Assembly (NCBI GenBank): GCA_052034495.1
Contig: JBPOIL010000001.1
Coordinates: 14 to 64,013, forward strand
DNA length: 64,000 nucleotides
From: Patescibacteria group bacterium
GTDB taxonomy: Bacteria > Patescibacteriota > Saccharimonadia > CAILAD01 > JADZBC01
Direction: 5' to 3'
Position 1 is the stretch's first letter; each line of letters begins with the position of its first letter. Shown here piece after piece: positions 24,551 to 57,505 of the stretch. A program made the position numbers and the translations under genes. The notes under the pieces were generated by a model that saw nothing but the letters and a program-made list of their open reading frames with translations, was not told the DNA's origin and ran no database searches.

Positions 24551-24979
24551 ATGGCACGAAAAAACGATGTGGACGAAGAAATTTTGCAAGAAGAGTTCCT
24601 AGATGACCAGGCAGCCGGTGAGGACTGGATGGCCGAAAACGAGTTCGAAGGTCAGCTTGCAGTAGATGTGTATCAAACCAAAGAAACCGTGGTCATCAAG
24701 GCGCCTATCGCCGGCGTGCGACCAGATGATATTGATGTAGCGATCTCTGAAGATGTCGTAACGATTCGTGGCGACCGCAAGGACGAACGAGCAGTCGAGA
24801 AGGAGCATTACTACGTACAAGAGTGCTTCTGGGGATCATTCTCTCGCTCAGTAATCTTGCCAACCTCGACGATTGCCGATAAGGCTGCCGCTAGTTTGAA
24901 GGACGGAGTTCTCACAATCGAAATCCCTAAAGTTGCGCAGAATAAGGTCAAGAAGATTAAAGTTAGCGCTAGTCTCTAA
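24551..24979 (+). CDS. Hsp20/alpha-crystallin family small heat-shock protein
   Basis: ACD domain (LAVDVYQTKETVVIKAPIAGV...GVLTIEIPK). Upstream TTGCAA-18-TATAAT and AAGGAG RBS. Confidence 0.85.
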   Translation: MARKNDVDEEILQEEFLDDQAAGEDWMAENEFEGQLAVDVYQTKETVVIKAPIAGVRPDDIDVAISEDVVTIRGDRKDERAVEKEHYYVQECFWGSFSRSVILPTSTIADKAAASLKDGVLTIEIPKVAQNKVKKIKVSASL

Positions 24980-24997
24980 CCACGTATAGTCCTAACT

Positions 24998-25026
24998 AAA
25001 AACGACCCACTCGGGTCGTTTTTAGT
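24998..25026. terminator. bidirectional terminator AAAAACGACCC-actc-GGGTCGTTTTT
   Basis: Perfect stem flanked by A5 and T5. Confidence 0.6.
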
Positions 25027-25061
25027 TAGCCTAATTCAGGGGCTAGGGACAGCCAGGCTTA

Positions 25062-26408
25062 CTACTTACTAGTGACCATCTCCTGAGTTGTCCTTGTAGC
25101 CGCCGTATCAACGGCCGACTGCGCATCGCCGCCAGCTAAAACAGCGCTTATCATGTCAGAGAATATCCCATCAACGTTATAGCTGTTGCCCTTGTACCAA
25201 GTTTTTGCTGTGCTTAGCTGGTCTGCAAAGGGACCGAGGTATTTGTCCTCTGACTGCAGATTGATAAGATCTTTACGGGCCGCGGGGCGGTAGGTAGCAA
25301 TGCTGTAGCGGTTCAACTGAGTGCGGGTAGAGGCGAATCTTAGAAAGTCCCAGGCCACCTCTGACTGCTTACTATCCTTGTTGACTTGCTCGACCCAAAA
25401 TTCCGCCTGGTTAATCGAGTTGCCGGTATCAACCTGTGGCAGGGATGTCATCTTGTACTTAAGCTCTGGACTTGCAGCATCAATTTCTGGCGCGCGGTAT
25501 GCATACTCGACTATCATTGCGGCCTTTCCGGCCTTGAAGGCATCGAGCGAGCTTCCCAATTTGCTATTCCACGCGTAGTTCTCGCTCTTTTCTCGGGCAA
25601 AGCTTGTGAAGAAGTTGGTTGCTTTAGCTCCCGACGCATAGCCTGTTCCGTCTGGCTTGTTGAAAGTTGCCTGAGTAGGGGGACTATTCGTCATTGTGGC
25701 CCCATTTTGCTGCATTAGAACAGAGACTATCGAAGTGTAGTCTGTGACAGAGCCGTTCCCCAAGGCAACTCCGGCCAGAGTAATGTCGGCGCCAGAACGC
25801 TGGGTTATCTTGCGGCTCATGTTCATGAGCTCATCCCAGGTTTTAGGCGGGTTCTTATAGCCGGCCTTACTCAATAGATCTTGGTTGTAAAACAGGCCCA
25901 AGGTAGATACCCCAAAAGCCAAACCGTCCACTACCTCGCCTTCTACTAACTTCTTCGAGGCTACATCTACGAACGTGTCCCTAAACTCATTGGCCGTGTA
26001 TACGGTACTGGGAGCCGGGGCATTGTAGTCATCATAGCGGGGGAGCCAGTCGTCCTTAACTGTATATAGATCTGGTAATTTCCCTGCCTTTGCAGCTTCA
26101 GTCAATTGCTTATCGTAATCAGCGGCCTTTAAGTTGCTGAGCTTTATCGTTACATTGGGGTGAAGTTTCTTGTAATCAGCGATTATGTCGCTAAAGGGCT
26201 CGACCCCGTCAACGGTGCGCCAGTAGGTAAGTGTAATCGGCTCAGTAGGGAACTCAAACCGCGAGCCAGATTCTTCGATTCCTTCTACGGATATGGCATT
26301 CTGCGGTTCGGAGGGGATAAGCAAAGCTAGGCCAACAAGAATGGCTAATGCGATGCTAATAGATATGACGGTGGCTTTGTGCCGACTTAAGAAATTCATT
26401 GAACTCAT
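25062..26408 (-). CDS. ABC transporter substrate-binding protein (extracellular solute-binding, family 1-like)
   Basis: N-terminal signal/TM anchor; ~430-aa periplasmic-binding-like body. Confidence 0.5.
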   Translation of the reverse strand: MSSMNFLSRHKATVISISIALAILVGLALLIPSEPQNAISVEGIEESGSRFEFPTEPITLTYWRTVDGVEPFSDIIADYKKLHPNVTIKLSNLKAADYDKQLTEAAKAGKLPDLYTVKDDWLPRYDDYNAPAPSTVYTANEFRDTFVDVASKKLVEGEVVDGLAFGVSTLGLFYNQDLLSKAGYKNPPKTWDELMNMSRKITQRSGADITLAGVALGNGSVTDYTSIVSVLMQQNGATMTNSPPTQATFNKPDGTGYASGAKATNFFTSFAREKSENYAWNSKLGSSLDAFKAGKAAMIVEYAYRAPEIDAASPELKYKMTSLPQVDTGNSINQAEFWVEQVNKDSKQSEVAWDFLRFASTRTQLNRYSIATYRPAARKDLINLQSEDKYLGPFADQLSTAKTWYKGNSYNVDGIFSDMISAVLAGGDAQSAVDTAATRTTQEMVTSK

Positions 26409-26491
26409 TTTACCATGGTAGGCTTACGCTTTAGTAAATCTAAAAGCGCCGCGGGATTACGCAGCGCTCAAGAATAAATAGCCTGGGATAA

Positions 26492-26860
26492 TTACACTAT
26501 ATTGACAACATAATTAGCAATGGAGTAGGCCAGCAATGAAACGACGAGGCCAATCACTGCATATAATATGGTGTCCTTAGCGGCCGTGGTGCCTTTTTGG
26601 TCGCCACCAGACAAAACGTAGCGCAACCCGCCAATCACAATCATGATTACAGATATAATGCCTATGGCCAGTATTAACGTGTTCGTGATCGTGCCAATAG
26701 AGCCCATGAGGTCTGTTGTGCCGAAGTTGCCATCATTTGCACATTCTGCCCCTGCAGCTGCGCCGCCGCTCAAATCACAAGCAGCTAGCGCCCTCTGGGC
26801 GTTTAATGCCACTGAGAGCGCTAAGCCTGATGCTACAGATGTAACTCGCGCTAATCGCAT
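26492..26860 (-). CDS. VirB2/TrbC-like T4SS pilin paralog 1
   Basis: Signal peptide + 2 TM. Conserved block GGLRYVLSGGDQKGTTAAKDTILYAVIGLVV shared with paralog 2. Confidence 0.6.
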   Translation of the reverse strand: MRLARVTSVASGLALSVALNAQRALAACDLSGGAAAGAECANDGNFGTTDLMGSIGTITNTLILAIGIISVIMIVIGGLRYVLSGGDQKGTTAAKDTILYAVIGLVVSLLAYSIANYVVNIV

Positions 26861-26868
26861 AGAACTTC

Positions 26869-27222
26869 TTAGAGCTGGTTGATTACGAAGTTCATGATGG
26901 AGTAGGAAAGGAGCGCAACGACCACACCGATGATGGCGTACAGAATGGTGTCCTTGGCAGCCGTAGTGCCTTTTTGGTCGCCGCCCGAGAGAACGTAGCG
27001 GAAGCCACCGATAATCAACATGATTACAGATACGATACCAATGATGGTAATCATCAAGTTCGTGATTCCTGCAATTGAGTCAGTTAGGCTCGTTGTCTCT
27101 AGGTTGCCTTGTGCTGCATTGATGCCTTCTTGCGCATCAGGGTTAGCGGCAAGCGCAGTACCCGCAGACAACATTACCCCTGTTAAGCCCAAGCTAACCT
27201 TTGTGGTGATTTCTTTTACCAT
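26869..27222 (-). CDS. VirB2/TrbC-like T4SS pilin paralog 2
   Basis: Same architecture. Block GGFRYVLSGGDQKGTTAAKDTILYAIIGVVV. Confidence 0.6.
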   Translation of the reverse strand: MVKEITTKVSLGLTGVMLSAGTALAANPDAQEGINAAQGNLETTSLTDSIAGITNLMITIIGIVSVIMLIIGGFRYVLSGGDQKGTTAAKDTILYAIIGVVVALLSYSIMNFVINQL

Positions 27223-27294
27223 TTTAATAAATTCTCCTTAAACAATTATGCTTAGATTGTATATGACTCCACCTGGTTTGACAACAAAAACTTA

Positions 27295-27666
27295 CTAGGA
27301 AGCAGGGAAGAGACCGATCACATAATTAACTATGGCGTAGGCAAGCATAGTAATGACCAGGCCGATTACTGAATAGAGAATGGTGTCCTTGGCCTTTGTG
27401 GCCTTGCTAGAATCACCAGCAGACAACGAGTACATAATGCCACCCACAATAATCATAATGACCGATATAATACCCGCAATGGTAAGGAGCGTGCTCGTGA
27501 TAGTGCTAATTACAGTTCCGGCGCTATCGGGCGTTCCGCTTAGGCTAGTAATCTTCAGGCTAGTGGGAATAGGGGTGGGGGCAGGATCTTCTGCCAAAGC
27601 CACGCCACGCCAGAGTAGGGTGGTGGCGCCTGCGGCTAGGTACTTAAGGGTCTTTGGAATTTTCAT
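27295..27666 (-). CDS. VirB2/TrbC-like T4SS pilin paralog 3 (diverged)
   Basis: Block GGIMYSLSAGDSSKATKAKDTILYSVIGLVI. Trimmed to MKIPKTL, a signal-peptide-like start. TATAAT lies 7 nt upstream of the ATG. Confidence 0.5.
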   Translation of the reverse strand: MKIPKTLKYLAAGATTLLWRGVALAEDPAPTPIPTSLKITSLSGTPDSAGTVISTITSTLLTIAGIISVIMIIVGGIMYSLSAGDSSKATKAKDTILYSVIGLVITMLAYAIVNYVIGLFPAS

Positions 27667-27710
27667 AACTGCATTATAGACTAGTTTGCCCAAAAGTATA
27701 AAGACCAAGA

Positions 27711-27986
27711 TTACAGGCCGAATGCGGCCATGACAAACTGACCAATCACTCCTGCCAGGATTGCCAGGATAAGCCCACCAATCGCGTTGGTAATCGTCTT
27801 CTTGGCCTTTTCTTGGCCCTGGGGATTACCGGCAGACATAGATAGCTGAATGCCTCCAATCACGATGAATATCACCGCCAATGAGCCTGCGAGCATCAGG
27901 GCAAATAGACCAATGTTGTTAATCAAGTCCATAATGCTGCCATAGTCTGCGTCTGTCCCGACCTTTACGTCCTCAAACAAGTTCAT
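27711..27986 (-). CDS. pilin-like small membrane protein paralog 4 (no signal peptide)
   Basis: Block IGGIQLSMSAGNPQGQEKAKKTITNAIGGLILAIL; lacks the N-terminal leader. Confidence 0.45.
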   Translation of the reverse strand: MNLFEDVKVGTDADYGSIMDLINNIGLFALMLAGSLAVIFIVIGGIQLSMSAGNPQGQEKAKKTITNAIGGLILAILAGVIGQFVMAAFGL

Positions 27987-27995
27987 ACATACTCC

Positions 27996-28349
27996 CTATG
28001 CAATGTTAATTCCGAATATACCCATTATGGCACGAAGACTTATGAGAAGTATAAGAGCCACAATGGCGTTTATGAGTCGGCTCTTTGCGGCCTTGAGTCT
28101 ATCTGGACTGTCTCCAGATGTGATCATTTGCACCCCTGACACAACAATCATAACCACAAAGAGCGCTCCGAATAGTCCAACCATCATATTCGCAATAATG
28201 CCAATCAACTCCATTGGCTGGTCCGTACAGAGGTTTTCTGGCAAAAACTCCCCACAGTTATCTACTGTGGCGGCCCTTGCGCTCGAAGGCAGGGCCAAGA
28301 GCAGGGTAGCTAATAATGCAGTCTTAATGTTGGCGATCTTCATCTTCAT
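27996..28349 (-). CDS. VirB2/TrbC-like T4SS pilin paralog 5
   Basis: Signal peptide MKMKIANIKTALLATLLLALPSSARA + 2 TM. Block VSGVQMITSGDSPDRLKAAKSRLINAIVALIL. Confidence 0.5.
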   Translation of the reverse strand: MKMKIANIKTALLATLLLALPSSARAATVDNCGEFLPENLCTDQPMELIGIIANMMVGLFGALFVVMIVVSGVQMITSGDSPDRLKAAKSRLINAIVALILLISLRAIMGIFGINIA

Positions 28350-28438
28350 TAGTCTTAGAGTTTAGTTGCTCTTATTGAGGTACTTATAAGCGTAAGCTCT
28401 GTACCTAGCTGTGACTATTATACTATAATGACCACATA

Positions 28439-30658
28439 ATGCCTCGACTTATTAAAAATACTGCGTCTCGCCGCTGGTCCCTGCTAAAGGCTGGGCTATT
28501 TGTGGTGTTCGTGGCCGTGTTTGTAAGCGCGCTAGTCAGCCCATCAAAAGCCAGCGCATCGCAGTCTGCAAGATTCGAGGACGCTTCCCATATAAAAATA
28601 AAGGATAGTGGCATGGATACCTTTACACTGCAAGAAGTGCAGGATGCAGCCACAGATGCCCAAATTGATGCCCAAAGCTCGGGGGAAGATGGCACGGTAT
28701 TAAAGGCTGTGTACTTCTTTAGCCCTGCGGCCAACCTTGGTAAGAGGATATGGGAAGCGGGATGTCAGGGGTGTTATGACTACTACTTCAGCCCAACACT
28801 TACCGTGCAAGCTGGCTTCCCAGTTTATGTAGGAGCTGGCGAAAATAAGCGCCTAATGTACCCGCTCTACGAAATCGCCCCTCGAGCTGGCGTTCGCTGG
28901 GATAAAGATCTTAAGCCCCCTATGTCTGAACCAGCAGTGATGACTTTTAACTACGAGGAAAACGGCACCAAAACACCAGAAAAGAAAGATGGCAAAGTAA
29001 TCTGCTCCATGGAGCAATGGATAAACTGCTACGAAAACACTAATGGGGGGAGGCTAATTACGTCCTCTACCTTCACAGACGCAGAGAGAGACAAACTAGA
29101 CGATATAATAAGCAAGACCAAGTCTACGTTTAAAAGCACGCAGAACGCGATCAAGGACAGTTGTGATGGCGGAGCTTTGGGCTTCATTCTCTGCCCCATT
29201 CAAGACGCCATGCTCAAGGTCGTAGAAACACTGAATGGCTGGCTTGCGAATATACTAGATATTAATACGAGCGGGTTTCAGAACGACACACTGCAAAGGG
29301 CTAGCCAGAATATACTCGGCCTAGCAAACGCCATATATGCGTTAATATTCTTGGTGATAATATTCGCTAACGGCCTAAGTATTGGTATAGACAGCTACAC
29401 CCTCAAAAAGATGGTACCGCGGCTCGTTGCCGCTATAATCCTTTCGCAGTTCGCATACTTCCTTACAGGGGCATTTATAGAGTTTGGAAATGTACTGGGC
29501 CGAACTGTTACGGCATTCTTTGTGCAGCTCGTACCCGAGAGTGCGAATGGCGTTGGACTAGGAGGTGCAGTTACTCTGGGGGTTCTAACTGGCGTTGCAA
29601 TACTACTAATCCTGGTGATGCTGCTAGTCATTATAGTTGCCTTCTTGGTGGTACTGGGCGTGTTGGCACTACGTTGGGCCGCCCTATACGCCCTGATACT
29701 TGTTGCTCCGCTTGCTTTTGCGGCCATGGTGCTGCCAAACACCAAGAAGCTATTCGACTTATGGTGGAAGAATCTCCTGAAGCTGGTAATGATGTTCCCG
29801 ATTATTATGGCTATCACAGCGGGTGCAACATTCCTAAGCACGGTTATGATAGCCGAAGACGCACCGCTTGTTATTCAGATTATTGGAGCGCTCTTGCCGT
29901 TTATTGGATTCTTGATGGTTCCGAAGGCGTTCAAGTGGAGCGGAAGCTTAATGGCGGCAACCGGCGGAAAGGTTTCGGACTGGACTGCAGGAAAGGCCAA
30001 AGGTACATACCAGAAGAGTGCAAAGGAAGGCAGTATAGCAAAAGCGAAAGGTAAAGGTCTTCAAATCGCCGGCGGAGCAGCGACCAAGATGCCAGTATTC
30101 GGAGGGGCTGCTGGAGGGGCTCTGTTGAAACGAGGGGCTGCGGCACGTGGTGCTGCTTCAAGTGCAGAGAAGGATTATTTCAAGAACTTTTCAGATGAGG
30201 ACCTTGGAAAGTATATAGCGGCAACAAAAGGAAAGGGGAAACTCGCGGGCGTGGCGAAAGGAGACCTGGATCGACGGATTAGTGAAAAGGCCAAAGACCA
30301 AAGAGAATACTTTAGCCGTACGGGCACTGTGGACACAGTTGGGGCAGCAAAACTAGAAAAATTACAGGCGTTCAAGCTCGGGGAGGTCGGAGTCGATGCC
30401 GACGAGACTCGAGAGGGAACGTATTACGATCCATCAAGAGGGGTGGTTACAGCCACCGTAAAGCTCGACCCAACAACCGACAATGTCGAGGTGAAGGGCA
30501 GTATTGTTGATATATCTGGGGCAACTGTGGTGGGAGTACCAACTCCACCAGGAGGTACGCCCGTGTCGACCAACCTCCCTAAATCGGGATCAGTCCCTCC
30601 TGGTTCTGGGCCAAAGTATTCAGGCTACGATCCCTCTAAGCGATCTAGCTTCTTATAA
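28439..30658 (+). CDS. VirB6/TrbL-like polytopic T4SS membrane protein with large N-terminal extracytoplasmic domain
   Basis: Signal/TM, ~280-aa Cys-containing ectodomain, 6-7 TM helices, then a Gly/Lys-rich C-terminal tail. Confidence 0.45.
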   Translation: MPRLIKNTASRRWSLLKAGLFVVFVAVFVSALVSPSKASASQSARFEDASHIKIKDSGMDTFTLQEVQDAATDAQIDAQSSGEDGTVLKAVYFFSPAANLGKRIWEAGCQGCYDYYFSPTLTVQAGFPVYVGAGENKRLMYPLYEIAPRAGVRWDKDLKPPMSEPAVMTFNYEENGTKTPEKKDGKVICSMEQWINCYENTNGGRLITSSTFTDAERDKLDDIISKTKSTFKSTQNAIKDSCDGGALGFILCPIQDAMLKVVETLNGWLANILDINTSGFQNDTLQRASQNILGLANAIYALIFLVIIFANGLSIGIDSYTLKKMVPRLVAAIILSQFAYFLTGAFIEFGNVLGRTVTAFFVQLVPESANGVGLGGAVTLGVLTGVAILLILVMLLVIIVAFLVVLGVLALRWAALYALILVAPLAFAAMVLPNTKKLFDLWWKNLLKLVMMFPIIMAITAGATFLSTVMIAEDAPLVIQIIGALLPFIGFLMVPKAFKWSGSLMAATGGKVSDWTAGKAKGTYQKSAKEGSIAKAKGKGLQIAGGAATKMPVFGGAAGGALLKRGAAARGAASSAEKDYFKNFSDEDLGKYIAATKGKGKLAGVAKGDLDRRISEKAKDQREYFSRTGTVDTVGAAKLEKLQAFKLGEVGVDADETREGTYYDPSRGVVTATVKLDPTTDNVEVKGSIVDISGATVVGVPTPPGGTPVSTNLPKSGSVPPGSGPKYSGYDPSKRSSFL

Positions 30659-30666
30659 GAAAAATT

Positions 30667-31500
30667 ATGAGTCAATATAAAGTCCCCCAAAACGTAGAAG
30701 CAGAAGACACCATCCTGGGTCCGTTGACGATTAAACAGTTCATATACGTCGTCATCGCAATAGGGTGGGGCTTTCTGTGCTGGCGTGTGTTTGGCGTAGC
30801 TCCAATCATAGCCATTTTTCTAATACTGCCAATTTCTGGGCCACTCTTAGCACTCGGGCTCATCCGCCGCGAAGGCCAGAGCTTCGAAACGTACTTTATC
30901 GCCATGATTCGCTTCGTGCTTGTGCCCCGCAAGCGTACCTGGCTCAAAGACCAGTCAAAGGTGGTCATTAAGGAGGAGGTTAAAAAGCCAGAGTTAGAGG
31001 AGGTAAAAATGCCGAGCGCCACTGAAGTCCGCGGAGAACTGCGCAAACTTGCCACCATAGTCGACAGCCGCGGCCGCATACCAAAGGGCTTGGAGCTTCA
31101 ATCTGCCGATGCAAACGTGGCCGGCAGCGCGCTCAGTCAGCGTGTAGTGACTCCCGAAGCCACCCAGGTAGCGTCAGAAATAATTGCTACTAAGGTGTCG
31201 GCACCCCGCACGGACATGCTCGACATGCAGCACAGCCCACAGGCCGTAGCAGTAGGGGAGCTCCTAACTACGAGTGGTGCGAATGTAAAGGCACAGGCCA
31301 TAGCGAACATGCAGAAGGCTGCTACTGCTCCTACAAGTCACCCTGCCAGCCAAGCACAAGCACCTTCGCAAGCACCAGCGCAAAATGCTATACTACAAAG
31401 AGCTGCCGAGAGTAGTGGCGTAGTGTCTGTACAGCAACTTGCTGACCAGGTTAGCCGCCATAATGTTCTCCAGCAGGGGCAAAGCACGCAAGTTCGCTAG
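30667..31500 (+). CDS. PrgI/VirB3-like T4SS membrane protein
   Basis: N-terminal LGPLTIKQFIYVVIAIGWGFLCW + second TM, the 2-TM PrgI-family architecture. Located directly upstream of VirB4. Confidence 0.5.
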   Translation: MSQYKVPQNVEAEDTILGPLTIKQFIYVVIAIGWGFLCWRVFGVAPIIAIFLILPISGPLLALGLIRREGQSFETYFIAMIRFVLVPRKRTWLKDQSKVVIKEEVKKPELEEVKMPSATEVRGELRKLATIVDSRGRIPKGLELQSADANVAGSALSQRVVTPEATQVASEIIATKVSAPRTDMLDMQHSPQAVAVGELLTTSGANVKAQAIANMQKAATAPTSHPASQAQAPSQAPAQNAILQRAAESSGVVSVQQLADQVSRHNVLQQGQSTQVR

Positions 31501-31542: not shown

Positions 31543-32613
31543 ATGGCTCAGCCAACTCAACCAAATCCACAAATTACCGACCAACAGCGACAGGCCTTGG
31601 CCTCTGTAACGCCGCCCAAAAACGTCAAAGATCAACGCGCCAGCACACAGAACCACTTAATGTTTTCGGAAATACGCGACAACATCGTAATGATGCGCGA
31701 CGGGTCATTACGTATGGTAATTATGGCCTCGGCGGTTAACTTTGACCTTAAGAGCTCCAGAGAGCAAGACGCGATTGAATACGCATACCAAGGCTTCCTG
31801 AACGGCCTGCACTTCCCAGTGCAAATTATCATTCGTTCGCGCAAAATCGACCTAGACAACTATCTTGGCAAGCTCGAGGGACTGCAGGCAGAGCAAGAAA
31901 ACCAACTCCTGGCAGGCCTAATGGAAGACTATATATTTAACATCCGCGGCTTGCTCGAAGACGTCAACATTATGGCAAAGTCATTCTACATAGTTGTGCC
32001 ATATTACATTCAGGTGGCCAGCAAAGAGAACATTGTTAGCAAAATAACTGGGCTCATGAAGCAGAACGAAGACGTAGTGGAGAGTAGTGCGGACTTTGAA
32101 AAACATAAAGGAGAGCTTATTCAGCGTACCAACATTGTGGCTCAAGGCTTAGCCCAGATCGGCATACGCGCTGCCGTACTGACCACCCAGGAGCTGATTG
32201 AGCTGTACTATGGCTCGTACAATATCGATGAGGCGCAAAACCAACCCCTCGTAGGAATGGATGAAATAAATTCGCCAGTCGTTGGCAGGAGTGGTGCGCC
32301 GCTTGTACCGCACGGGCCAGCGCAAAAGGTTGCGGAGCCCGAAGACATGTTTGCCGCCGCCCGCAAAGCAGCCGCAACGCATGCACCAGTGGCCCAACAG
32401 GCTCAACACGTTGCTGCCGTACCGCAAGCCGCACCAGCAATCCAGCAGGCGCCAAATCAAGCCGCTACTACATCCGTACAGCAACCAGGTCCGCCAGTGA
32501 CTCAGCCTGTACCGACTGCTCCAGCCCAGCAGCAAGTTTCTGCTGGCCAGACGGTACAGATTCCTCGCCCCGCAGCAGCGCCTCAGCAGCCACCCCAGGG
32601 AGGGCCTCAGTAA
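31543..32613 (+). CDS. VirB4/PrgJ N-terminal domain-like protein with Pro/Gln-rich C-terminal tail (apparent N-terminal part of a split VirB4)
   Basis: Block IRDNIVMMRDGSLRMVIMASAVNFDLKSSREQDAIEYAYQGFLNGLHFPVQIIIRSRKIDLDNYL resembles the VirB4/CagE/TrbE N-domain. It ends in a ~120-aa low-complexity tail. Its stop overlaps the next ATG (TAATG). Confidence 0.45.
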   Translation: MAQPTQPNPQITDQQRQALASVTPPKNVKDQRASTQNHLMFSEIRDNIVMMRDGSLRMVIMASAVNFDLKSSREQDAIEYAYQGFLNGLHFPVQIIIRSRKIDLDNYLGKLEGLQAEQENQLLAGLMEDYIFNIRGLLEDVNIMAKSFYIVVPYYIQVASKENIVSKITGLMKQNEDVVESSADFEKHKGELIQRTNIVAQGLAQIGIRAAVLTTQELIELYYGSYNIDEAQNQPLVGMDEINSPVVGRSGAPLVPHGPAQKVAEPEDMFAAARKAAATHAPVAQQAQHVAAVPQAAPAIQQAPNQAATTSVQQPGPPVTQPVPTAPAQQQVSAGQTVQIPRPAAAPQQPPQGGPQ

Positions 32614-34505
32614 TGGCTGTTAAAAAACCAAGGGTTGACCCTAGAGTTCAGGCAGAGATTGATCGCCGGGCCGCAATCCAGGCCGAAGCCGAGAAGGTTT
32701 ACCGCGAAGGCGTAGTAAGTTTACGGGATATCATCGCCCCGTCATCAATTGAGATTGTAAACGACCACATTAAGATCGGGAAGCGCTTAGCGCGGACGCT
32801 GTTTGTGTTTGGCTACCCCCGCACGCTCTTTACTGGCTGGTTGTCGCCACTTATTAATGTCGATGAAATTATCGACATTAGCCTCAACATTATCCCGGTG
32901 GAGAGCAAAATTGTACTCGATAATCTCAAAAAGAAGGTAGGGCAGCTAGAAGCTAACTACACTATCAACCAAGAAAAGGGCAAGGTGCGCGACCCGGGGC
33001 TAGAGGCTGCCATCCAGGATGCTGAGGAACTCCGCGACAGCTTACAGGTGGGTTCTGACAGGTTTTTCCGACTTGGATTGTATATAACCATATATGGTAA
33101 GGATATGGATGAACTAAACCTTGTGGGTAAAAAGATTGAAAGCATGTTAGGCCAAAGCCTCATCTATACCAAGCCGGCAACGATTCAAATGGAGCAGGGC
33201 TTTAATTCAACTATCCCAATGGGCCTGGATCAGCTTAATGTATACCGGAACATGAACACAGGCGCGCTGAGCTCAACCTTCCCATTCACTACGGCCGAAC
33301 TCAGTCAGGAAGACGGCATTATGTATGGTATTAACCGTCACAATAATGGGCTTGTGATTTTCGACAGGTTTAGCCTGGAGAACGCTAACATGACAGTGTT
33401 TGCCAAGTCCGGTGCTGGTAAGAGTTTTGCGGTTAAGTTAGAGTGCTTGCGATCTCTCATGATGGGAACAGAAGTGGTTATTATAGACCCCGAGAATGAA
33501 TATAAAACGCTTTGTGATGCAGTGGGGGGCAGCTACCTGCACTTATCTCTCGCCAGCAATACCCGCGTTAATCCATTTGATTTGCCTCAAACAGTGGACC
33601 CAGAAGAGGCAGACAATGCCCTGCGAGCAAACATAATCATGCTCCACGGACTGCTCAGACTGATGGCTGGGGACATGAGTCCTACAGAGGAAGCCGACAT
33701 GGATATCGCCCTGATCAACACTTACGCCAAAAAAGGTATTACCAACGATCCGCTCACACACCGTGCCCAGCCACCCGTAATGGCCGATTTGTATAATGAG
33801 TTACTATCTATGCCGGGGACCGGGCAAGGCCTCGCCGCCCGCTTGCGCCGTTTTACTGAAGGAACGTTCTCGGGTATCTTCTCGCAGCAGTCCAACGTAC
33901 AACTTAACAACCGGTTTGTGGTGTTCAACATTCGCGACTTAGAAGATGAATTGCGACCCATCGGTATGTACATTGTGCTCAATTATATCTGGAACCGTGT
34001 TAAAACCGACCGCCGTAAACGAATCCTTGTGGTAGACGAAGCCTGGCAGCTCATGCAATACCAGGACTCTGCTATGTTCTTGTTCTCAATCGCTAAGCGT
34101 GCCCGTAAGTACTTCCTTGGCCTCACAACCATATCCCAGGACGTAGAGGACTTCCTAAGTACTCGGCTAGGTCGTGCAATTGTAAATAACTCTTCCTTGC
34201 AACTCCTCCTCAAGCAAAATCCAGCAGCCGTAGACATTGTAGCTGACACGTTTAAGCTAACGAGCGAAGAGAGTAGTCGGCTAAGTCAGTTCCCAGTAGG
34301 GGAGGGTCTATTCTTTGCCGGACTCAGCCACATTATTCTACGCATCTTGGCCTCACCAATGGAGACTCAACTAATCAGCACGAACCCACAGCACATGCTC
34401 GATCAGCAACGCGCCCAGCAAGAAGCCGTGGACGCAGCCGTAGCCGCCGCGCCACCACAGCCAGAAGCTAACTCGGCGACTCCAGCAGACACAAGCCAAG
34501 CGTAA
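32613..34505 (+). CDS. virB4: VirB4/TrbE/PrgJ-family T4SS ATPase
   Basis: ARTLFVFGYP motif, Walker A FAKSGAGKS, Walker B ILVVDEAWQLM; 630 aa. Confidence 0.85.
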   Translation: MAVKKPRVDPRVQAEIDRRAAIQAEAEKVYREGVVSLRDIIAPSSIEIVNDHIKIGKRLARTLFVFGYPRTLFTGWLSPLINVDEIIDISLNIIPVESKIVLDNLKKKVGQLEANYTINQEKGKVRDPGLEAAIQDAEELRDSLQVGSDRFFRLGLYITIYGKDMDELNLVGKKIESMLGQSLIYTKPATIQMEQGFNSTIPMGLDQLNVYRNMNTGALSSTFPFTTAELSQEDGIMYGINRHNNGLVIFDRFSLENANMTVFAKSGAGKSFAVKLECLRSLMMGTEVVIIDPENEYKTLCDAVGGSYLHLSLASNTRVNPFDLPQTVDPEEADNALRANIIMLHGLLRLMAGDMSPTEEADMDIALINTYAKKGITNDPLTHRAQPPVMADLYNELLSMPGTGQGLAARLRRFTEGTFSGIFSQQSNVQLNNRFVVFNIRDLEDELRPIGMYIVLNYIWNRVKTDRRKRILVVDEAWQLMQYQDSAMFLFSIAKRARKYFLGLTTISQDVEDFLSTRLGRAIVNNSSLQLLLKQNPAAVDIVADTFKLTSEESSRLSQFPVGEGLFFAGLSHIILRILASPMETQLISTNPQHMLDQQRAQQEAVDAAVAAAPPQPEANSATPADTSQA

Positions 34506-34540: not shown

Positions 34541-37500
34541 ATGGCTCAAAACACAGGACGTGACCCAAATCTAGACGAAGGTCAAGCTTACGGCGGGACC
34601 CCCACTCAGCAGAGCGGGGGAACTAGCATGGCGCGTGATATTGCCCAGGCAGGTAAGGATGTTGCAAAAAGTACCGGCAAAAAGTCGCCTGGGAACGAAA
34701 AGCTCCCCGACAGTCCTTATGTAAAAGGTGGCGGTAACGGCGAGGACAGTCTACCGTCGCGTGGTGCCAAAGCTGCTCAAACCATGGCAGGCAAGGGCGG
34801 CACAGACCCTACGACCGGCCAGGCAGGGCGAGCCACCCAGGCGGCCCTAGAGGCAACAGGAACCGCCAAAGATAAGGATGAGCAAGGAGTCGCCGAAAAG
34901 GCCGCCCGTAAAGCTGGTGGTAAAGCTGCTCGCGCAGGAGTAGATGCTTTCACTGGTAGTGATCAGTTGGGGCAAGTTGCGGATCAAGCGGTTCAAAGTA
35001 TTGACCCGAAAAAGGCAGCCAAAAAGGGAGCGAAGGCGGCCGTCGCTACTATAGGTATTGGAATCGCACTGATAGTCACCCCGCTGCTTTTACTACTGTT
35101 AATTATCGGATACGCATTTACCCACCCCTGGGATGCTGCTAAGGAGGTTATTACAAATGCTAGCTACCGACGGTTCGTAGCAAGCGTGGCAGGCTTGGCA
35201 GTTGGCCCAGGAAGCAGCGCGAATTCAATAGCCGCTATTACCGGCCCCATGCCATACGAGGTGGACTATAGACCTGGCTCTGCTATTGCGGCCCCGGCTG
35301 GCCCTAAGCCAGAGCCAGGGACGCTCGAAGATGCCATCTCCAAAATTGACTACGAAAAGTCCAGGAACCGGTTTAAAGGTGACTACTGCGAGTACAGAGT
35401 GATAACCAAGCCAGTGGTGTCCTACGACGGCCAGCGTCGTAACGTCATCAATAAAGTTGTAGATGCAAAAGGTAAGCCCGTAGAGATATCATCCCCCGCC
35501 GTCTACCAGTGTATTCTAGAACAATACCCAGTTATGGAGACCATGATGCGTAGCGAGCAAGCTCGTAAGATTAACAAGCAAATGCAAGTTAACTTCTCCT
35601 ATGCTGAAAAGGAAGATTCTAAGGCTCTTGAAGGCAAATCCAAAGAGGAAGTAAAAGAAGCACTACACAAAAAGTCTCTGACGCGTTTATGGAGCAACTC
35701 GGACAGCCCTTACGGCAATAGTACCGAGTGTGTAGAGGACTTTAAGCCTACAGGCCCCAAGGTGGATAGGGCGATTAAAAAGGTAATCAACAACTTAGCC
35801 TGTGGTGCTCAACCGGAAAAGATCGATGTCGACTACAAGGTAGAGGAAATACCTAAATCACTCGACACCGACTCAGCCAAGTATGAAAAACGACTAGTCG
35901 AATATACCAAGGCCGCTTGTGTTTTCTATAAGAAGCTCAATGAGGACAAGGATGCTATAAAAAAGTATCAGCTAAACCGAGCGAAGTCATCCGCCCGAGC
36001 TGGATTCCAGGCCCTAACCTTGGCTGATACCGGCGTAGCGGGCGAAATATCAACCGAGGAACTTAACGGCGACTTCTATAAAATCTCAAACTTTGCTTCC
36101 TCGAGGGCCTATAAACAAGAGGTGAATGGAAGCTCGGATGGCGTGCAAGTAGACCCAGAGGCTATACCGACCACAGTACTTGGTCTTACGAAGAACTACT
36201 TCGAAGGCCTGGAGGACAATGGTAGAATCAAAGACTCACTCGCTGAAATGTGCAAGGATCAGGACAAAATAGGCGACGGTGGTTTCACTGGTTTCGCAAG
36301 CTTTATAAGTGGCTTGTTTGGCGGGGGTGGGCCATCAAAAGAAGAGCTTGCTAAGGATATTGATGATGCACTTACGTACCTAAAAAAGGACATTCAGAAG
36401 AACAATTCTCAATACTTTACCTCAGCAGAAAAAGTAACCCTAGAAGACATTATCGTACGTACGGTCATGATTACCTCTAACGCCAGTAACAGCGGTGTAG
36501 AAGATGGCCCAGATAACTTTAACCGGATGATAGTAGGTGCGAAAAACTCATCATACATACATACCATGTCGCTCCTAGGTGGTAGCTACCAGACTGAACC
36601 CGAGGCGGCTCAAGCGAGCATCCAAGTTGAACAATACAAGCGACTTCGAGATAAACAGGGTGGTATAGCCTATAGGCTTTGGAATAAGGATAATCCACGC
36701 TCGTTGGCAAGTCGGCTCGCGGCTGAATCCACAGCGACACCTTCGCAGATCACTGAAAAAACTTCACGTTATGCGCTTAATATGCTTAACCCGATTCGGG
36801 CCTTTGCCGAGGTAAACTCTATGATTACCTATGTGGGCTATGGCGAAACTAACCGGGCCATTGCGGCCGCGGACGACGATAGGGCGTACTGGAAGATCGA
36901 CACAGCCGGAGTTCAAGCTACGGAAGATGCTGTGCAGAATGCCCGCTACATCGAGGCGTTAAAGAAGAAGGTCGCGGACCCTGCTTACACTAATGATGAA
37001 ACTATTAAGGCAGTTGCGGCTTCATTTGCAGCGTGGGACAAGTGCATGGATACATACTATCCGGATATGCAGACCCTTGATGATAATAAAGATGACAGAG
37101 CATGTCAGATTATGCGAAAGACCACCGGAAGTAGAGCTATCGCAAGCAACTACGCTGTATCACCCAATAAGTATAAACTCCCTACTGGAAATATCCGCTT
37201 AGCTGCACTTAGCCCAACTTCCGAAAAAGCACTGGCCCGTAAATACGCTGTGTACAAAGGCCATGTAAACTTCTATAGCGCTTGGGCACGGCTTAGCAAG
37301 ACCGAAAAGGATGAAGAAATGTATGCCAATAGTGGACCATCGGATGAATCAAATGGGGCTGCCGACCAGGTTGCTACTGGCAACACGGGACCCAACGGTA
37401 GTGTTAAGTCTGATAAGCCAACGGCTTGTACGAGTGGGCCGCAAGAAGGAACGGTGGAACTATCTAAGTATATAATGAGTAAGTTCGGAGCAAGCAGCAT

Positions 37501-52141: not shown

Positions 52142-53148
<1,007 letters not shown>

Positions 53149-53149
<1 letters not shown>

Positions 53150-53724
53150 TGGCCAATTTAGCAACCACAGAGTTTAAAGGCAGAAACACAAAGATCCCAG
53201 GTTTACTATTCTTCGACGTGTCATATGTCGGTGACGAAAGGGGCTACTTCCAGGAAAAGTACCAGAAAGCAAAGCTAGTTGATGCCGGCATGCCAGGGGA
53301 GTTTAATGTTGTTCAAAATAGCCTCTCGTTTAATAAGCAAAAGGGAGTAACACGTGGCCTGCACGCAGAGCCGTGGGACAAGTACATCTCCGTAGTCGAG
53401 GGCAGTGTTTTTGCCGCCTATGTTGACCTCCGGGAGGGAGAAAACTTTGGAGTTGTTGAGACGATTACCATTACCCCAAACGTTACGGTCTTTTTACCAC
53501 AAGGAGTCGCAAACTCTTTCCAGACCCTCGAAGACAATACATTCTATCTCTACAGCGTTAATAAGCACTGGAGCGCGGACGATTATGAAAAGTACGCTTT
53601 TGTGAACTTGGCCGACCCGCAGGTTGCGATCAAGTGGCCCGTACCTCTGGCCGATGCCGTGATGTCAGATAGAGACAAGGAGCACCCATTACTAAAAGAC
53701 ATTAAACCAATGGTTGTTTCCTAA
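53149..53724 (+). CDS. rfbC: dTDP-4-dehydrorhamnose 3,5-epimerase
   Basis: 191-aa cupin in the rml operon context. Confidence 0.8.
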
Positions 53725-54575
53725 TGAACGAACATAAGATCCTCATTACTGGCGCTAATGGGCAGCTTGGTAAAGAACTGCAAAGGCAGTACCCCAAGGC
53801 ACAAGCAGTAGGTAGTGCAGAGCTTGATATCTCAAGCCCCGAAGCCGTTAAGTCCTTTAACTGGTCTACTGTAGACATCATTATTAATGCAGCAGCATAT
53901 ACAAACGTAGATGGGGCTGAAGGTACCGAGGGTAGAAAAGCTGCCTGGGCGGTAAACGCGACCGGCGTGGCCAATTTAGCAATGGTTGCTTCTGAGCATG
54001 GTCTGACATTAGTACATATTTCCAGCGAATATGTATTCGATGGGACTTCTAAAAAGCATGACGAGGAAGAAACACTAAGCCCACTATCTGTATATGGAAG
54101 CAGTAAGGCTGCTGGGGATATTGCTGCTTCGACAACTAACAAGCATTATATTATACGCACTAGCTGGGTCATCGGTGAGGGCAAGAACTTTGTCCGTACC
54201 ATGCTTGGCCTAGGGCAGAAGGGCATCGCTCCTACTGTGGTCTCAGACCAGATTGGGCGCCTTACGTTTACCACGGAGCTTGTGCGGACCATAGACCACT
54301 TACTCCAGAACAGAGCCGATTACGGAGTGTATAACCTCAGTAATGGCGGAGAGCCCGCCAGCTGGGCCGACATTACACGCGCCATATTCAAATGCGCCGG
54401 CTATGATTTAGTAGTCGGAGAGACAACTACCGAGGAATACTTTGCTGGCAAAGAAGGCATCGCCCCCCGGCCGCTACAGAGCACCCTCGACCTCTCTAAG
54501 GTTATAGCTACCGGGTTCGAGCCGAAAGATTGGCGCGATGACCTAGTTAATTACGTTAAAAAGGAGCAGGCATGA
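53724..54575 (+). CDS. rfbD: dTDP-4-dehydrorhamnose reductase
   Basis: N-terminal [11 protein letters not shown]; 283 aa. Confidence 0.85.
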
Positions 54576-55429
54576 AAGGAATAATTCTAGCAGGCGGTTC
54601 GGGAACAAGACTCTACCCGGTCACCAGGGGTGTATCCAAGCAGCTGATCCCTATTTACGATAAGCCGATGATCTACTATCCGCTTTCAACGCTCATGAGC
54701 GCAGGGATTCGAGAGATTTTAATAATCTCAACGCCCCAAGACCTACCAAGGTTCGAGCAGCTGTTGGGCAGCGGGGCTGAAATCGGCTGCGACTTTACCT
54801 ATAAGGTGCAGGACGAGCCCCGAGGCCTAGCCGATGCTTACAGAGTAGGGGCTGAGTTCATCGGGGACGACAAGGTTGCCATGGTGCTGGGGGACAACAT
54901 CTTCTATGGCTCCGGCCTGGCTGAAAAGCTCCAGTCGTTTACCGATATCGACGGAGCAGTTGGTTTTGCTGCACCAGTCCATGACCCGGAGCGTTACGGC
55001 GTCTACGAATTCGATGAGCAGATGAACGTGCTCTCGATTGAAGAAAAGCCAGAGAAGCCAAAGTCCAACTATGCTAACGCAGGCCTGTACTTTTGCGACA
55101 ACGAAGTAGTAGAGATTGCTAAAAACGTAGAGCCAAGTGAGAGGGGCGAGATCGAGATTACCTCCGTGCTAGATGCCTACCTTAAGAAGGGTAAGCTAAA
55201 GGTTTGTTTATTTGACCCAGGGACTGCATGGCTAGACACTGGTACGTTCGCAAGTCTCAATCAGGCATCCCAATTTGTTCAAGTTATTGAGGAACGACAA
55301 GGTATCAAGATTGGTTGTATTGAGGAAATTGCTTGGCGGAATGGCTGGATTAATGACGAACAGCTAAGCAACCTCGCTACCCCATTGAAAAAGAGTGGAT
55401 ATGGTAAATATTTAGAAGGGCTTCTGTAG
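54572..55429 (+). CDS. rfbA: glucose-1-phosphate thymidylyltransferase
   Basis: N-terminal [18 protein letters not shown]. Confidence 0.9.
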
Positions 55430-55435
55430 CAAGGC

Positions 55436-56209
55436 ATGAAGATAATTGTCGCCATACCTTGTTTCAACTGTGAGAAACAAATACCTAGAGTTATAAAGGG
55501 TTTCAACAAAAAACTGCTTTCTGAGTTAGACGAGGTAATGGTTATTAATAACCGCAGTGAGGACAACACTGTTGAAGCTGCAAAAAAAGCAATTCAACAA
55601 ATAGGCTCACGTAAATTTAGTATTTACACAAATACAGAAAACTACAATCTAGGAGGCACACACAAGGTTGCATTTCTACATGCAGAACAAAAAAATGCAG
55701 ACTATATTATTATTCTTCATGGCGACGACCAGGCAAGTACCCAAGACATTAGCAAGCTAATAAGAGCTGCGAAAAATAGTCCTAATGCCTCGGCAGTCCT
55801 GGGTTCAAGATTCTCAAAGGGGTCAGAGCTCCAGGGGTATTCCATTGAAAGAATTATAGGGAATAAGTGCCTCAATCTAATCTATAGTATTGTAACCCTC
55901 CGTAATACCAGAGACTTGGGATCGGGCTTAAATATTTTCAAAATAGATTCACTGAAGGATCATAGATATTTAGGGTTTGGGGACAACCTTGCTTTTAACT
56001 TCGATTTATTGCTAGATTTCTATAGAAAGAAGTCTATTCTAGTATCTACTCCAATAATCTGGCGAGAAACTGACCAGGTAAGTAATGCAAAAAACCTAAA
56101 AATAGCCAAAATGGCCCTTACTAAGCTAGCAAGGTGGAGGTTTCACAAAGAAAGATTTCTAAAAAAGACGACAAATGACTACACTACTACGAAAGTTTGG
56201 TCAAAGTGA
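55436..56209 (+). CDS. glycosyltransferase family 2 protein
   Basis: N-terminal IIVAIPCFNCEKQI; DxD-type GT-A fold. AT-rich (~38% GC). Confidence 0.7.
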   Translation: MKIIVAIPCFNCEKQIPRVIKGFNKKLLSELDEVMVINNRSEDNTVEAAKKAIQQIGSRKFSIYTNTENYNLGGTHKVAFLHAEQKNADYIIILHGDDQASTQDISKLIRAAKNSPNASAVLGSRFSKGSELQGYSIERIIGNKCLNLIYSIVTLRNTRDLGSGLNIFKIDSLKDHRYLGFGDNLAFNFDLLLDFYRKKSILVSTPIIWRETDQVSNAKNLKIAKMALTKLARWRFHKERFLKKTTNDYTTTKVWSK

Positions 56210-56940
56210 AAGAACTACAGATACTTATGCCTATGGGAGGATTGGGTCAGCGTTTTCGAGATCAAGGGTACGAGACGCCAAAACCACTCATTCAAGTAGA
56301 AGGTAGGGCCATGTTCCTTAAAGCACTCGAAAGTTTTGAAGATCTTGACGTACCTAAATCATATATATTTGTGATTAGAGCCGATCAAGACCAAGAGTAT
56401 AACTTAGCAAAAAAAATTTCCTCTTTGTTGCCGGAAGCAAAAGTTAACATATTAGATCACAATACACAGGGAGCAGTAGAAACATGCCTGATAGCAGAGA
56501 AAGACATTAAGCCTGATTGCCCAATTATTATTATGGATTGCGATTTTCGCTTTTCATCTAAAGAATATAACAGCAAGGTAGTATCTGCCATCAATCATGG
56601 CGAACCGGACGGAATATTATTGTGTTTCCCTTCTGATAATCCAAGGTATAGTTATGCAAAGTTAAAAAATCAGAATGTCGTAGAAACCGCTGAAAAAAAA
56701 GTCATATCCAGCAACGCTATAGCAGGTGCTTATTATTTCAACAAAGCATCATCCTTCTTGGATTCCGCTCACAAACTACTAAAGATACCAATTTCTGAAA
56801 ACATGAAAGAATATTATTTGTCTTTAATATATAATATTCTAATAAAACAAGATAAATCTATAACAATTGCAAGGATTGACGATTTTAATTCGTTTGGAAC
56901 GCCAGAAGAGTTAAAATCGTTTCTATCTACTGATGAGTAA
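56197..56940 (+). CDS. sugar/alcohol-phosphate nucleotidyltransferase (LicC/IspD-like NTP-transferase fold)
   Basis: Motif MPMGGLGQRF...PKPLIQVEGRAM. Very AT-rich. Confidence 0.55.
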   Translation: MVKVKELQILMPMGGLGQRFRDQGYETPKPLIQVEGRAMFLKALESFEDLDVPKSYIFVIRADQDQEYNLAKKISSLLPEAKVNILDHNTQGAVETCLIAEKDIKPDCPIIIMDCDFRFSSKEYNSKVVSAINHGEPDGILLCFPSDNPRYSYAKLKNQNVVETAEKKVISSNAIAGAYYFNKASSFLDSAHKLLKIPISENMKEYYLSLIYNILIKQDKSITIARIDDFNSFGTPEELKSFLSTDE

Positions 56941-57505
56941 GAATGGGAGAATTATCAAAGCATTTTTTTTCGATCTTGATGGCACACTTTGTGACACAGA
57001 TGAGGCGAACTATTTAGCCTACAAAAAAGCATTTAAAACTGCAGGTTTCGAGCTAAAGAGAAGTGACTTTGACAGAGTCAATGGCAATAGGGCGGATAAG
57101 TTTATGCCGGTCCTAATACCAGGCATTTCAGAAGAAGAGATTGAAAAAATTAGAGAACAAAAGGCAGTCTTTTATGCCAGACTAATGCATAAGACAAAAC
57201 CCAATAAAGAGCTTATTGATTTTATGAATAAGATGAGGCCGCATCACCAGATGGTCTTAGTCACAACCGCCGCCAAAAAAAATGCCCACGAAGTTTTGAA
57301 GCAAAATAACTTACTTCAAAGTTTTGATAAGATGATTTTTGGCGAATATATAGCAAGGCCAAAGCCAGCACCAGATGTGTATCTACTGGCTCTAAAAGAA
57401 GTAGGCCTGGAAAAAGATGAAGTAGTTGTTTTTGAAGACTCTCAAGTAGGTATAGAGGCGGCAACAAAAGCAGGCCTACAAGTAATTAAGGTAATAATAT
57501 CTTGA
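56933..57505 (+). CDS. HAD-IA family hydrolase (phosphatase/beta-phosphoglucomutase-like)
   Basis: FFDLDGTLCDT motif I. Confidence 0.7.
   Translation: MSKNGRIIKAFFFDLDGTLCDTDEANYLAYKKAFKTAGFELKRSDFDRVNGNRADKFMPVLIPGISEEEIEKIREQKAVFYARLMHKTKPNKELIDFMNKMRPHHQMVLVTTAAKKNAHEVLKQNNLLQSFDKMIFGEYIARPKPAPDVYLLALKEVGLEKDEVVVFEDSQVGIEAATKAGLQVIKVIIS

Follow-up and report, generated by a model that had tools for sequence, protein, structure and literature searches.

Five VirB2-like pilin paralogs in the origin-proximal type IV secretion locus of a Saccharimonadia bacterium and their orthologs in related genomes

Tandem pilin genes have been surveyed in the Patescibacteria, where 441 arrays of 2-11 genes were found in 383 assemblies, notably of Saccharimonadia and often near dnaA, and where, on the model of Bartonella and Anaplasma, host-range or antigenic variation was suggested for them (Quinonero-Coronel et al. 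2025, PMC12102498). An essential type IV secretion system (T4SS) with a pilin series, given as six pilins in a 2025 review, and with no recognisable relaxase or coupling protein was reported from Ca. Southlakia epibionticum (Wang et al. 2023, PMC10633639). Saccharibacteria depend on their T4SS for growth as epibionts (PMC10633639, PMC12102498), the function of the system has been described as completely unknown (PMC11665869), the building of a pilus by monoderm T4SSs is treated as an open question (PMC12857230), and according to reviews a lipid-containing, VirB4-dependent pilus has not been demonstrated for any Patescibacterium (PMC12857230, PMC11665869). The present analysis concerns five consecutive minus-strand open reading frames, pil1 to pil5, at 26492-28349 of a 64,000-nucleotide stretch of DNA (the window) from a Patescibacteria group bacterium of the class Saccharimonadia (assembly GCA_052034495.1, contig JBPOIL010000001.1, positions 14 to 64,013 of the forward strand). 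The array is of the already published kind of locus, and it is considered probable that it represents the pilin operon of a chromosomal, origin-proximal, monoderm-type Saccharibacterial T4SS whose five differentiated subunits are co-assembled in one heteromeric pilus or conduit.

Southlakia ML1 (within SEML1_0006-0019) and the 'Sec secreted array' of Ca. Nanosynbacter lyticus TM7x belong to the same bacterial class, and were likened to the window through published descriptions. In common with the window they contain a chromosomal T4SS with VirB4, PrgI, VirB6-like proteins and wall hydrolases, together with tandem divergent VirB2-like pilins in the T4SS cluster, and a relaxase or coupling protein is not recognisable near by. 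Southlakia needs its pilin series to grow on the host (PMC10633639, PMC12857230, PMC12102498), and the series is reported to comprise six pilins, whereas the clade of the window was found to contain five hairpin domains; six hairpins, in five or four genes, were found in two more distant Saccharibacteria (loci L028 and L029). The window also fits the surveyed arrays of 2-11 tandem PF18895/PF04956 genes near virB4, whose T4SS is often close to dnaA, its tandem pilin genes lying 4.3 kb from virB4 and corresponding to a patescibacterial T4SS pilin array as defined in PMC12102498. Identity within the surveyed arrays has a mean of 25% and a maximum of 54%, whereas pil1 and pil2 are 60% identical, and antigenic or host-range variation was suggested in that study, whereas the orthology, fusion and conservation found here point to fixed differentiated subunits. 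Multiple pilins are not unusual in Patescibacteria (PMC12102498), and the premise of a preliminary description of this DNA, that several pilins are out of the ordinary for a T4SS, fails in this phylum.

The five genes were found at the following positions (bit scores from hmmscan):

26492-26860, minus strand: pil1 (orthogroup E), 122 amino acids, PF18895 39.4 bits
26869-27222, minus strand: pil2 (orthogroup D), 117 amino acids, PF18895 43.2 bits, TrbC 20.6 bits
27295-27666, minus strand: pil3 (orthogroup C), 123 amino acids from the ATG at 27666, PF18895 49.5 bits, TrbC 26.4 bits, DUF6112 25.7 bits
27711-27986, minus strand: pil4 (orthogroup B), 91 amino acids, PF18895 46.1 bits
27996-28349, minus strand: pil5 (orthogroup A), 117 amino acids, PF18895 47.1 bits

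All five proteins passed the curated gathering cut-off of the T4SS_pilin family PF18895 (39-49 bits against 26.6), which was matched by all 81 homologs tested as well. The preliminary description had reported five tandem minus-strand VirB2/TrbC-like genes and was exact in their coordinates; it had named a lack of T4SS-pilin similarity as the result that would speak against it, and since all five exceed the PF18895 cut-off such similarity is present. Its proposed profile check gave a divided answer, T4SS_pilin being passed by five of five and TrbC/VirB2 (PF04956, cut-off 27.9 bits) by none. Pil1, pil4 and pil5 gave no PF04956 match at E <= 0.1, while 46 of the 81 homologs matched that family at E <= 1e-3, the lowest E-value being 1.5e-6, and because of the sub-threshold scores in the window together with these homolog matches the relation of the pilins to TrbC/VirB2 is read as that of a remote superfamily. 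The nearest curated non-Pfam model was the NCBIfam Mbov_0395 pilin-like conjugal transfer protein NF045849 (cut-off 40 bits), matched by 81 of 81 homologs at E <= 1e-3, against which pil4 scored 39.0 and pil3 38.8 bits and the others 30.1, 25.3 and 23.9 bits, all below the cut-off. The cut-off of the actinobacterial DUF6112 (25 bits) was passed by pil3.

Two strong hydrophobic helices were found in all five pilins, joined by a loop that reads S-x-G-x(6-7)-A-K. Pil1, pil2, pil3 and pil5 begin with leader-like segments that end in ALA or ARA, so the leader that had been described for all five holds for four, whereas pil4 has none. The block G(L/F)RYVLSGGDQKGTTAAKDTILYA was the same in pil1 and pil2 except for the L/F position, and the progressive divergence described earlier was borne out by the identities to pil1 of pil2 (60%), pil3 (43%), pil4 (31%) and pil5 (29%), pairwise identities among the five being 24-60%. 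An AlphaFold2 model of pil2, built with the 81 homologs, was found to be a helical hairpin with helices at 46-78 and 83-116 and a per-residue confidence (pLDDT) above 90. As judged from profile matches and position, the five genes are confirmed to encode VirB2-like T4SS pilin-family paralogs attached to a T4SS.

Pil1 was found to contain a leader ending in ALA, followed by a Cys-x12-Cys loop (ACDLSGGAAAGAEC) and the two-helix hairpin; it shares 83% identity with its ortholog in L020 and 70% with that in L001, and the Cys pair of group E is kept in most loci, being present in L001, L009, L020, L006 and L029 and missing in L002, L003, L010 and L011. Pil3 contains a leader ending in ALA and a Pro/Thr-rich N-terminus; its mechanical open reading frame reaches a TTG at 27708 (27295-27708, 137 amino acids), and its true start is probably the ATG at 27666, which gives 123 amino acids and a normal leader. 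The same 123-amino-acid pil3 was called independently on a public contig that is 100% identical to window positions 24711-30986. Pil4 has a short acidic N-tail ahead of the hairpin and no N-terminal signal-like segment. Pil5 was found to contain a leader ending in ARA, followed by a conserved Cys-x9-Cys loop (NCGEFLPENLC) and the hairpin. In group A as a whole a Cys-x(7-12)-Cys loop after the leader is kept across loci, and the N-terminal extension ranges from ~15 to ~100 amino acids between genomes, the ~100-residue forms being those of L002 and L003.

The comparison set consisted of the window and 13 related loci, with 12 complete loci of the clade; trees were neighbour-joining trees of short alignments without support values. 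In L019, L020 and L001 the pilins of the window were each matched by one ortholog (1:1), with gene order preserved, and for every pilin gene the ortholog identity (58-98%) was above the best paralog identity. The hairpin-domain tree was found to contain group A (pil5), group B (pil4), group C (pil3) and a joint group D/E (pil2 and pil1). Exactly five hairpin domains, from five or four genes, were present in 12 of the 12 complete clade loci, and the copy-number variation between strains raised in the preliminary description was not found among them. Amplification of the lineage-specific Bartonella/Anaplasma type was likewise not found, orthologs being closer than paralogs and the five domains recurring in every one of these loci. 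By this comparison the five pilins are ancient, individually conserved paralogs (orthogroups A-E) in a fixed order. At L019:10513-12200 the pil1 ortholog was called as a 71-amino-acid fragment and the neighbouring solute-binding protein gene was split into short open reading frames; L020, which has the same pil2 protein as L019, contains an intact 121-amino-acid pil1. The L019 fragment probably reflects assembly indels or pseudogenisation, not copy-number variation.

The members of the array were found to evolve at very different rates. Amino acid identity to the L019 orthologs was 98% for pil2, 97% for VirB4, 80% for pil3, 66% for pil4, 58% for pil5 and 47% for the VirB6-like protein, and pil1 was 83% identical to its L020 ortholog. 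Pil2 is the most conserved paralog (98% in both L019 and L020; nonsynonymous divergence dN 0.012, synonymous divergence dS ~1), and pil5 is the fastest-evolving one (dN 0.36). In the block shared by pil1 and pil2, 12 synonymous differences were found over 18.3 synonymous sites (proportion of synonymous differences, pS, 0.65), and the array contained no long identical DNA tracts for recombination. Because its synonymous sites have diverged to this extent, the block is held by purifying selection and not by recent gene conversion. Recent conversion between pil1 and pil2 was considered as a candidate and ruled out on the same pS value together with the absence of long identical tracts.

In the first gene of the array, hairpins of the pil5 and pil4 types were found fused in one protein of 197-236 amino acids in L004, L005, L006, L010, L011 and L012. 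Groups A and B were fused in six loci and split in six. The fused proteins align collinearly with pil5 and then pil4, with a junction motif LFxGVD, and pil4 by itself aligns collinearly with their domain b in L004, L006, L010, L011 and L012. In the VirB4 tree the fused and split states were interleaved, and at least 2-3 fusion or fission events are needed. This repeated fusion of A and B argues strongly that the two act together at 1:1 stoichiometry, and their covalent fusion in relatives indicates that they are partners in one assembly and not alternatives. It also accounts for the missing leader of pil4, because pil4 is the equivalent of the second hairpin in the fused proteins, where, both ends of a hairpin facing outward, no leader would be needed. 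In the window the TAG stop of pil5 and the ATG of pil4 were found in the same frame, separated by TAG GGA GTA TGT only (27986-27998); programmed read-through of this stop was considered and dropped, the two genes being in frame in 2 of 6 split loci, which is the chance level.

A word-indexed homolog search with pil4 returned 20 stand-alone proteins and no fusions. When 1.84 billion representative proteins were searched exhaustively with a profile, 75,346 family members were found at E <= 1e-3. The best-scoring of these carry from 2 to 17 PF18895 hairpins in tandem on one polypeptide (poly-pilins), forms with 4, 6, 11 and 17 hairpins existing elsewhere than in the window. Three of them, with six, four and 17 hairpins, were verified on their DNA:

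L025:1777-3435: six-hairpin poly-pilin P0141, inside a pilin array
L027:2861-4021: four-hairpin poly-pilin P0144, inside a pilin array
L026:10001-15328: 17-hairpin poly-pilin P0173, 1775 amino acids

In P0144 some linkers open with AxA-like motifs directly behind the second helix. On its contig the 17-hairpin protein has neighbours of archaeal type, among them ribosomal protein L39e and Cas4, and the 18.6-kb stretch around it contained no T4SS genes. No mention of fused or multi-domain T4SS pilins was found in the literature searched. The poly-pilins strengthen the view of the hairpins as ordered sets, and they raise the prospect of tethered-subunit assembly or of polyprotein processing.

Three non-coding features were found in and around the array:

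27223-27294, minus strand: conserved 72-nucleotide spacer upstream of pil2, with TTGTCA-17-TACAAT (27284-27256) and AAGGAG (27239-27234)
26444-26469, minus strand: terminator-like GC-rich hairpin with a T-rich tail, 10-pair stem with 7 GC pairs, a consensus match only, directly after the pil1 stop
28350-28438, no strand assigned: intergenic region of 89 bp from which the pilin operon and the T4SS machinery operon diverge

Ribosome-binding sites of their own had been described earlier for several of the genes, and clear Shine-Dalgarno sites were limited to pil2 (AAGGAG) and pil4 (GGAG, 5 nucleotides before the ATG). The spacer before pil2 was nearly identical in L019, L020 and L001, with about 4 differences in 65 nucleotides between the window and L019 by inspection, in contrast to the synonymous sites of the flanking genes, which are saturated. 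Among the spacers of an array, the one before the group-D gene is the longest in all 12 loci but L019, and a -10-like element was found before the group-D gene in every locus. Of the several promoter-like elements that had been described, the one of pil2 is conserved in relatives. The hairpin at 26444-26469 is likely the end of the pilin operon, as read from its form and place.

The pilin operon lies head-to-head with a plus-strand T4SS operon, a layout repeated in L019, L024, L028 and L029; in L002 and L003 the pilin array lies downstream of VirB4, and it was within the T4SS locus in every complete related locus. The plus-strand operon was found to contain the following genes:

28439-30658, plus strand: VirB6/TrbL-like polytopic membrane protein, 739 amino acids, with precomputed PF19590 TrbL_3 matches of the identical protein and of orthologs
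30667-31500, plus strand: PrgI-family protein (VirB3-like), 277 amino acids, PF12666 57 bits against a cut-off of 27
31543-32613, plus strand: TrsD/TraC-like protein, 356 amino acids, NCBIfam TrsD 25.3 bits, below threshold
32613-34505, plus strand: VirB4-like ATPase of the monoderm (CD1110) type, 630 amino acids, NF045971 369.8 bits against a cut-off of 325, Pfam P-loop_TraG
34541-37819, plus strand: large protein of 1092 amino acids, its C-terminus probably a VanY-type peptidoglycan peptidase on the basis of syntenic proteins
38766-40514, plus strand: GDSL lipase, phage-tail lysozyme and CHAP protein, 582 amino acids, Phage_lysozyme2 119.5, CHAP 43.2 and Lipase_GDSL_2 31.2 bits

Of the VirB6, VirB3 and VirB4 neighbours given in the preliminary description, PrgI (VirB3-like) and VirB4 were confirmed, and VirB6 was recovered through the precomputed TrbL_3 matches only, direct hmmscan of the 739-amino-acid window protein giving no Pfam match. 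For this protein, a 317-amino-acid protein and the 1092-amino-acid protein, Pfam and PDB searches yielded little or nothing and the annotation was taken from orthologs. The VirB6-like protein shares 47% identity with its L019 ortholog, against 97% for VirB4, and its N-terminal ~170 residues were unalignable; it evolves as fast as the adjacent pil5, which might reflect co-evolution or host-facing selection. Orthologs of the TrsD/TraC-like protein carry precomputed PF26593 TraC-like matches. VirB4 was found in two genes, the 356-amino-acid TrsD/TraC-like protein corresponding to its N-terminal part and the 630-amino-acid protein to the ATPase, with a one-base stop/start overlap at 32613, and the same split was found in L019, L028 and L029. 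The syntenic counterparts of the 1092-amino-acid protein in L028 and L029 carry PF02557 VanY, the L019 ortholog gave only a faint Peptidase_M74 match, and the window protein itself had no Pfam match. The 582-amino-acid hydrolase, by its domains, would take the wall-hydrolase role of VirB1. A GDSL lipase was also found after the pilin array in L027.

The genes recF, dnaN and dnaA start 0.3 kb past the last gene of the T4SS operon, followed farther on by yidC and mnmE, and the relatives of the window VirB4 were found throughout to be from uncultured Saccharibacteria/Saccharimonadia genomes; a look-up of the exact VirB4 sequence gave no record. No relaxase or coupling-protein (VirD4) family was found among the window open reading frames scanned, which were part of those in the window. 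Because of this and of the core-chromosome site beside dnaA, classical conjugation is unlikely, in agreement with the preliminary description and with published accounts of Saccharibacteria (PMC10633639, PMC12102498). A surface-polysaccharide locus at 52151-61416 was found to contain rmlB, C, D and A (dTDP-rhamnose), glycosyltransferases, a GtrA-like protein and LPG_synthase_TM, and it holds a low-GC stretch (0.37-0.39 at 56-60 kb against ~0.50 elsewhere).

Within the array, the conservation and signals suggest different roles for the five members, which would be co-assembled differentiated subunits on the VirB6-like/PrgI/VirB4 machine and not interchangeable variants. Pil2 would be the major and most highly expressed subunit, because no other paralog is as conserved and because it is preceded by a conserved promoter-like element of its own and by a strong ribosome-binding site, and pil1 would be its close sibling with an extra disulfide loop. 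Pil5 and pil4 would form a 1:1 pair, in which pil5 would present a fast-evolving, disulfide-bonded, outward-facing N-terminus. The pair may be located at the end that faces the host or where the structure meets VirB6, the latter because the VirB6-like protein evolves equally fast.

A course of assembly can be proposed in four steps taken from general knowledge of VirB2 systems. The hairpins would be inserted by Sec or YidC with both ends outside the membrane, and the leaders would be cut off by signal peptidase. VirB4 would then pull the subunits from the membrane, followed by their polymerisation on a VirB6-containing platform to a pilus or an envelope-spanning conduit, and the structure would serve the epibiotic interaction with the host bacterium and not conjugation. 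The peptidoglycan hydrolases of the operon could open the cell's own wall or that of the host. Because the T4SS is essential in Southlakia, host interaction, and not conjugation, is the most likely purpose.

Among more distant systems, VirB2 of Agrobacterium, TrbC of RP4 and TraA of F share with the window family a leader, two hydrophobic helices, a short polar or basic loop and a VirB4 partner, together with a sub-threshold to weak PF04956 profile similarity in the window family. They are single-copy pilins of diderms with an outer-membrane core complex and VirB5, whereas the window contains five copies in a monoderm with a VirB4 of the CD1110 family (MPF-FATA in PMC12102498). The Mbov_0395 family of Mycoplasma integrative and conjugative elements (ICE) and the actinobacterial DUF6112 proteins are likewise small hairpin proteins next to a monoderm-type VirB4. 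These elements are not known to carry more than a single pilin-like copy. They are mobile and conjugative, and the window proteins fall just below the NF045849 cut-off; nothing relevant was found in the literature searched on Mycoplasma ICE pilins. From such profile relations, VirB2-like hairpins may be native to monoderm T4SSs, the alternative given in PMC12102498 being co-option from diderm systems. The trwL copies of Bartonella and the virB2 copies of Anaplasma phagocytophilum (cited in PMC12102498) are also tandem divergent paralogs of a host-interaction T4SS, but they are viewed as lineage-specific amplifications for variation, whereas those of the window are ancient 1:1 orthogroups of constant number with A and B fused in relatives. 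By analogy only, type IV pili and type II secretion pseudopili contain a conserved, highly expressed major subunit and about four specialised minor subunits encoded side by side in a fixed order, though from an unrelated protein family and with an unrelated assembly ATPase.

The variation model put forward for trwL of the Bartonella Trw system and for the virB2 genes of Anaplasma, and raised for Patescibacteria by the same study (PMC12102498), would make the pilins of the window interchangeable units, differentially expressed or selected, that vary the filament surface for different host strains or for evasion of phage or immunity; diversification for such evasion had also been suggested in the preliminary description. 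Such a role agrees with the low identity of pil5 (58%), pil4 (66%) and the VirB6-like protein (47%) to their L019 orthologs against 97% for VirB4, and with the range of ~15 to ~100 amino acids in the group A N-terminal extension. It is nevertheless held to be quite improbable, and the supposed diversification for evasion is not supported, in view of the strict 1:1 orthology and fixed order across species and genera, the constant hairpin count in 12 loci, the covalent fusion of A and B in six of them, the near invariance of pil2, which is conserved like VirB4, the synonymous saturation of the block shared by pil1 and pil2, and the absence from the array of long identical repeats or cassettes to recombine. 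A host-contact role is possible for the fast-evolving part of the system, namely pil5, pil4 and the VirB6-like protein. That the proteins are generic small membrane proteins which lie beside a T4SS by chance was considered because short and hydrophobic sequences give weak spurious matches to unrelated membrane families; with five of five above the PF18895 threshold and an array within the T4SS in every complete related locus, this is effectively refuted.

It is unlikely, though somewhat more credible than interchangeable variants, that the hairpins never leave the cytoplasmic membrane and form a hetero-oligomeric ring, stalk or channel of the T4SS there, or a short conduit across the wall; the name pilin would then stand for homology alone. 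Monoderm systems of the MPF-FATA type have been described as pilus-less (PMC12102498, PMC12857230), the nearest NCBIfam model, NF045849, is one of pilin-like proteins of Mycoplasma ICEs (39.0 and 38.8 bits against 40, with 81 of 81 homologs matching), polypeptides of 2-17 hairpins resemble polytopic membrane proteins, and no VirB5-like tip protein was found among the open reading frames scanned. These points are set against the profile similarity of 46 of 81 members to pilus-forming TrbC/VirB2 pilins, the leaders and fast-evolving, outward, disulfide-bonded N-termini that suit exposed subunits, and the topology of a hairpin chain, which is compatible with a filament since the ends of each hairpin face outward. 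Several results also weigh against the co-assembly of five differentiated subunits in one pilus or conduit. Neither pil3 (26.4 bits) nor pil2 (20.6 bits) reached the PF04956 cut-off; a Foldseek search of the PDB with the pil2 model returned no solved VirB2, TraA or TrbC pilin, the best E-value being 0.37 and the matches being generic helical hairpins such as those of chemoreceptors and ATP synthase subunit c, although such a search tells little for so small a two-helix fold; and no pilin was returned when PDB sequences were searched with a profile, the matches being only weak ones to transmembrane parts of MacB and CD81. Sigma-70-like promoter matches were not enriched in the region (5 against 3.7 +/- 2.0 in shuffled sequence). 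The ratio omega is unreliable because dS was saturated (> 1 or undefined) against every relative compared, leaving dN and amino acid identity as the usable measures, and the history of D and E may include an old conversion or replacement, as the two groups cluster together on the tree in the clade of the window. Chains of up to 17 hairpins are hard to square with the extraction of single subunits into a classical pilus, and both the choice of the major paralog and the formation of a filament are read from sequence. The co-assembled set of five remains the reading that we regard as probable.

The window adds no new kind of system, and its interest lies in the fixed set, the A/B fusion and the poly-pilins. 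With these, the vague idea of many divergent pilins for variation is turned into a testable structural hypothesis, in which a fixed set of five or six differentiated hairpins contains one conserved major subunit with its own promoter and a fast-evolving, disulfide-bonded pil5/pil4 (A/B) pair that is interchangeably fused or split. This hypothesis can guide experimentalists as to the subunit to tag, the subunit to seek at the host interface and the pair to co-express. A further and more tentative suggestion is that PF18895 hairpins are obligate partners whose covalent linkage is free to vary in evolution, and not monomers that polymerise singly. If this were true, pre-ordered strings of tethered subunits would be laid into a filament or channel, which would be a new assembly principle, or else the chains would be polyprotein precursors in which each second helix is an internal signal peptide cut by signal peptidase; either would offer a concrete way into the question of how this T4SS, essential to Saccharibacteria, constructs what it displays at the surface.

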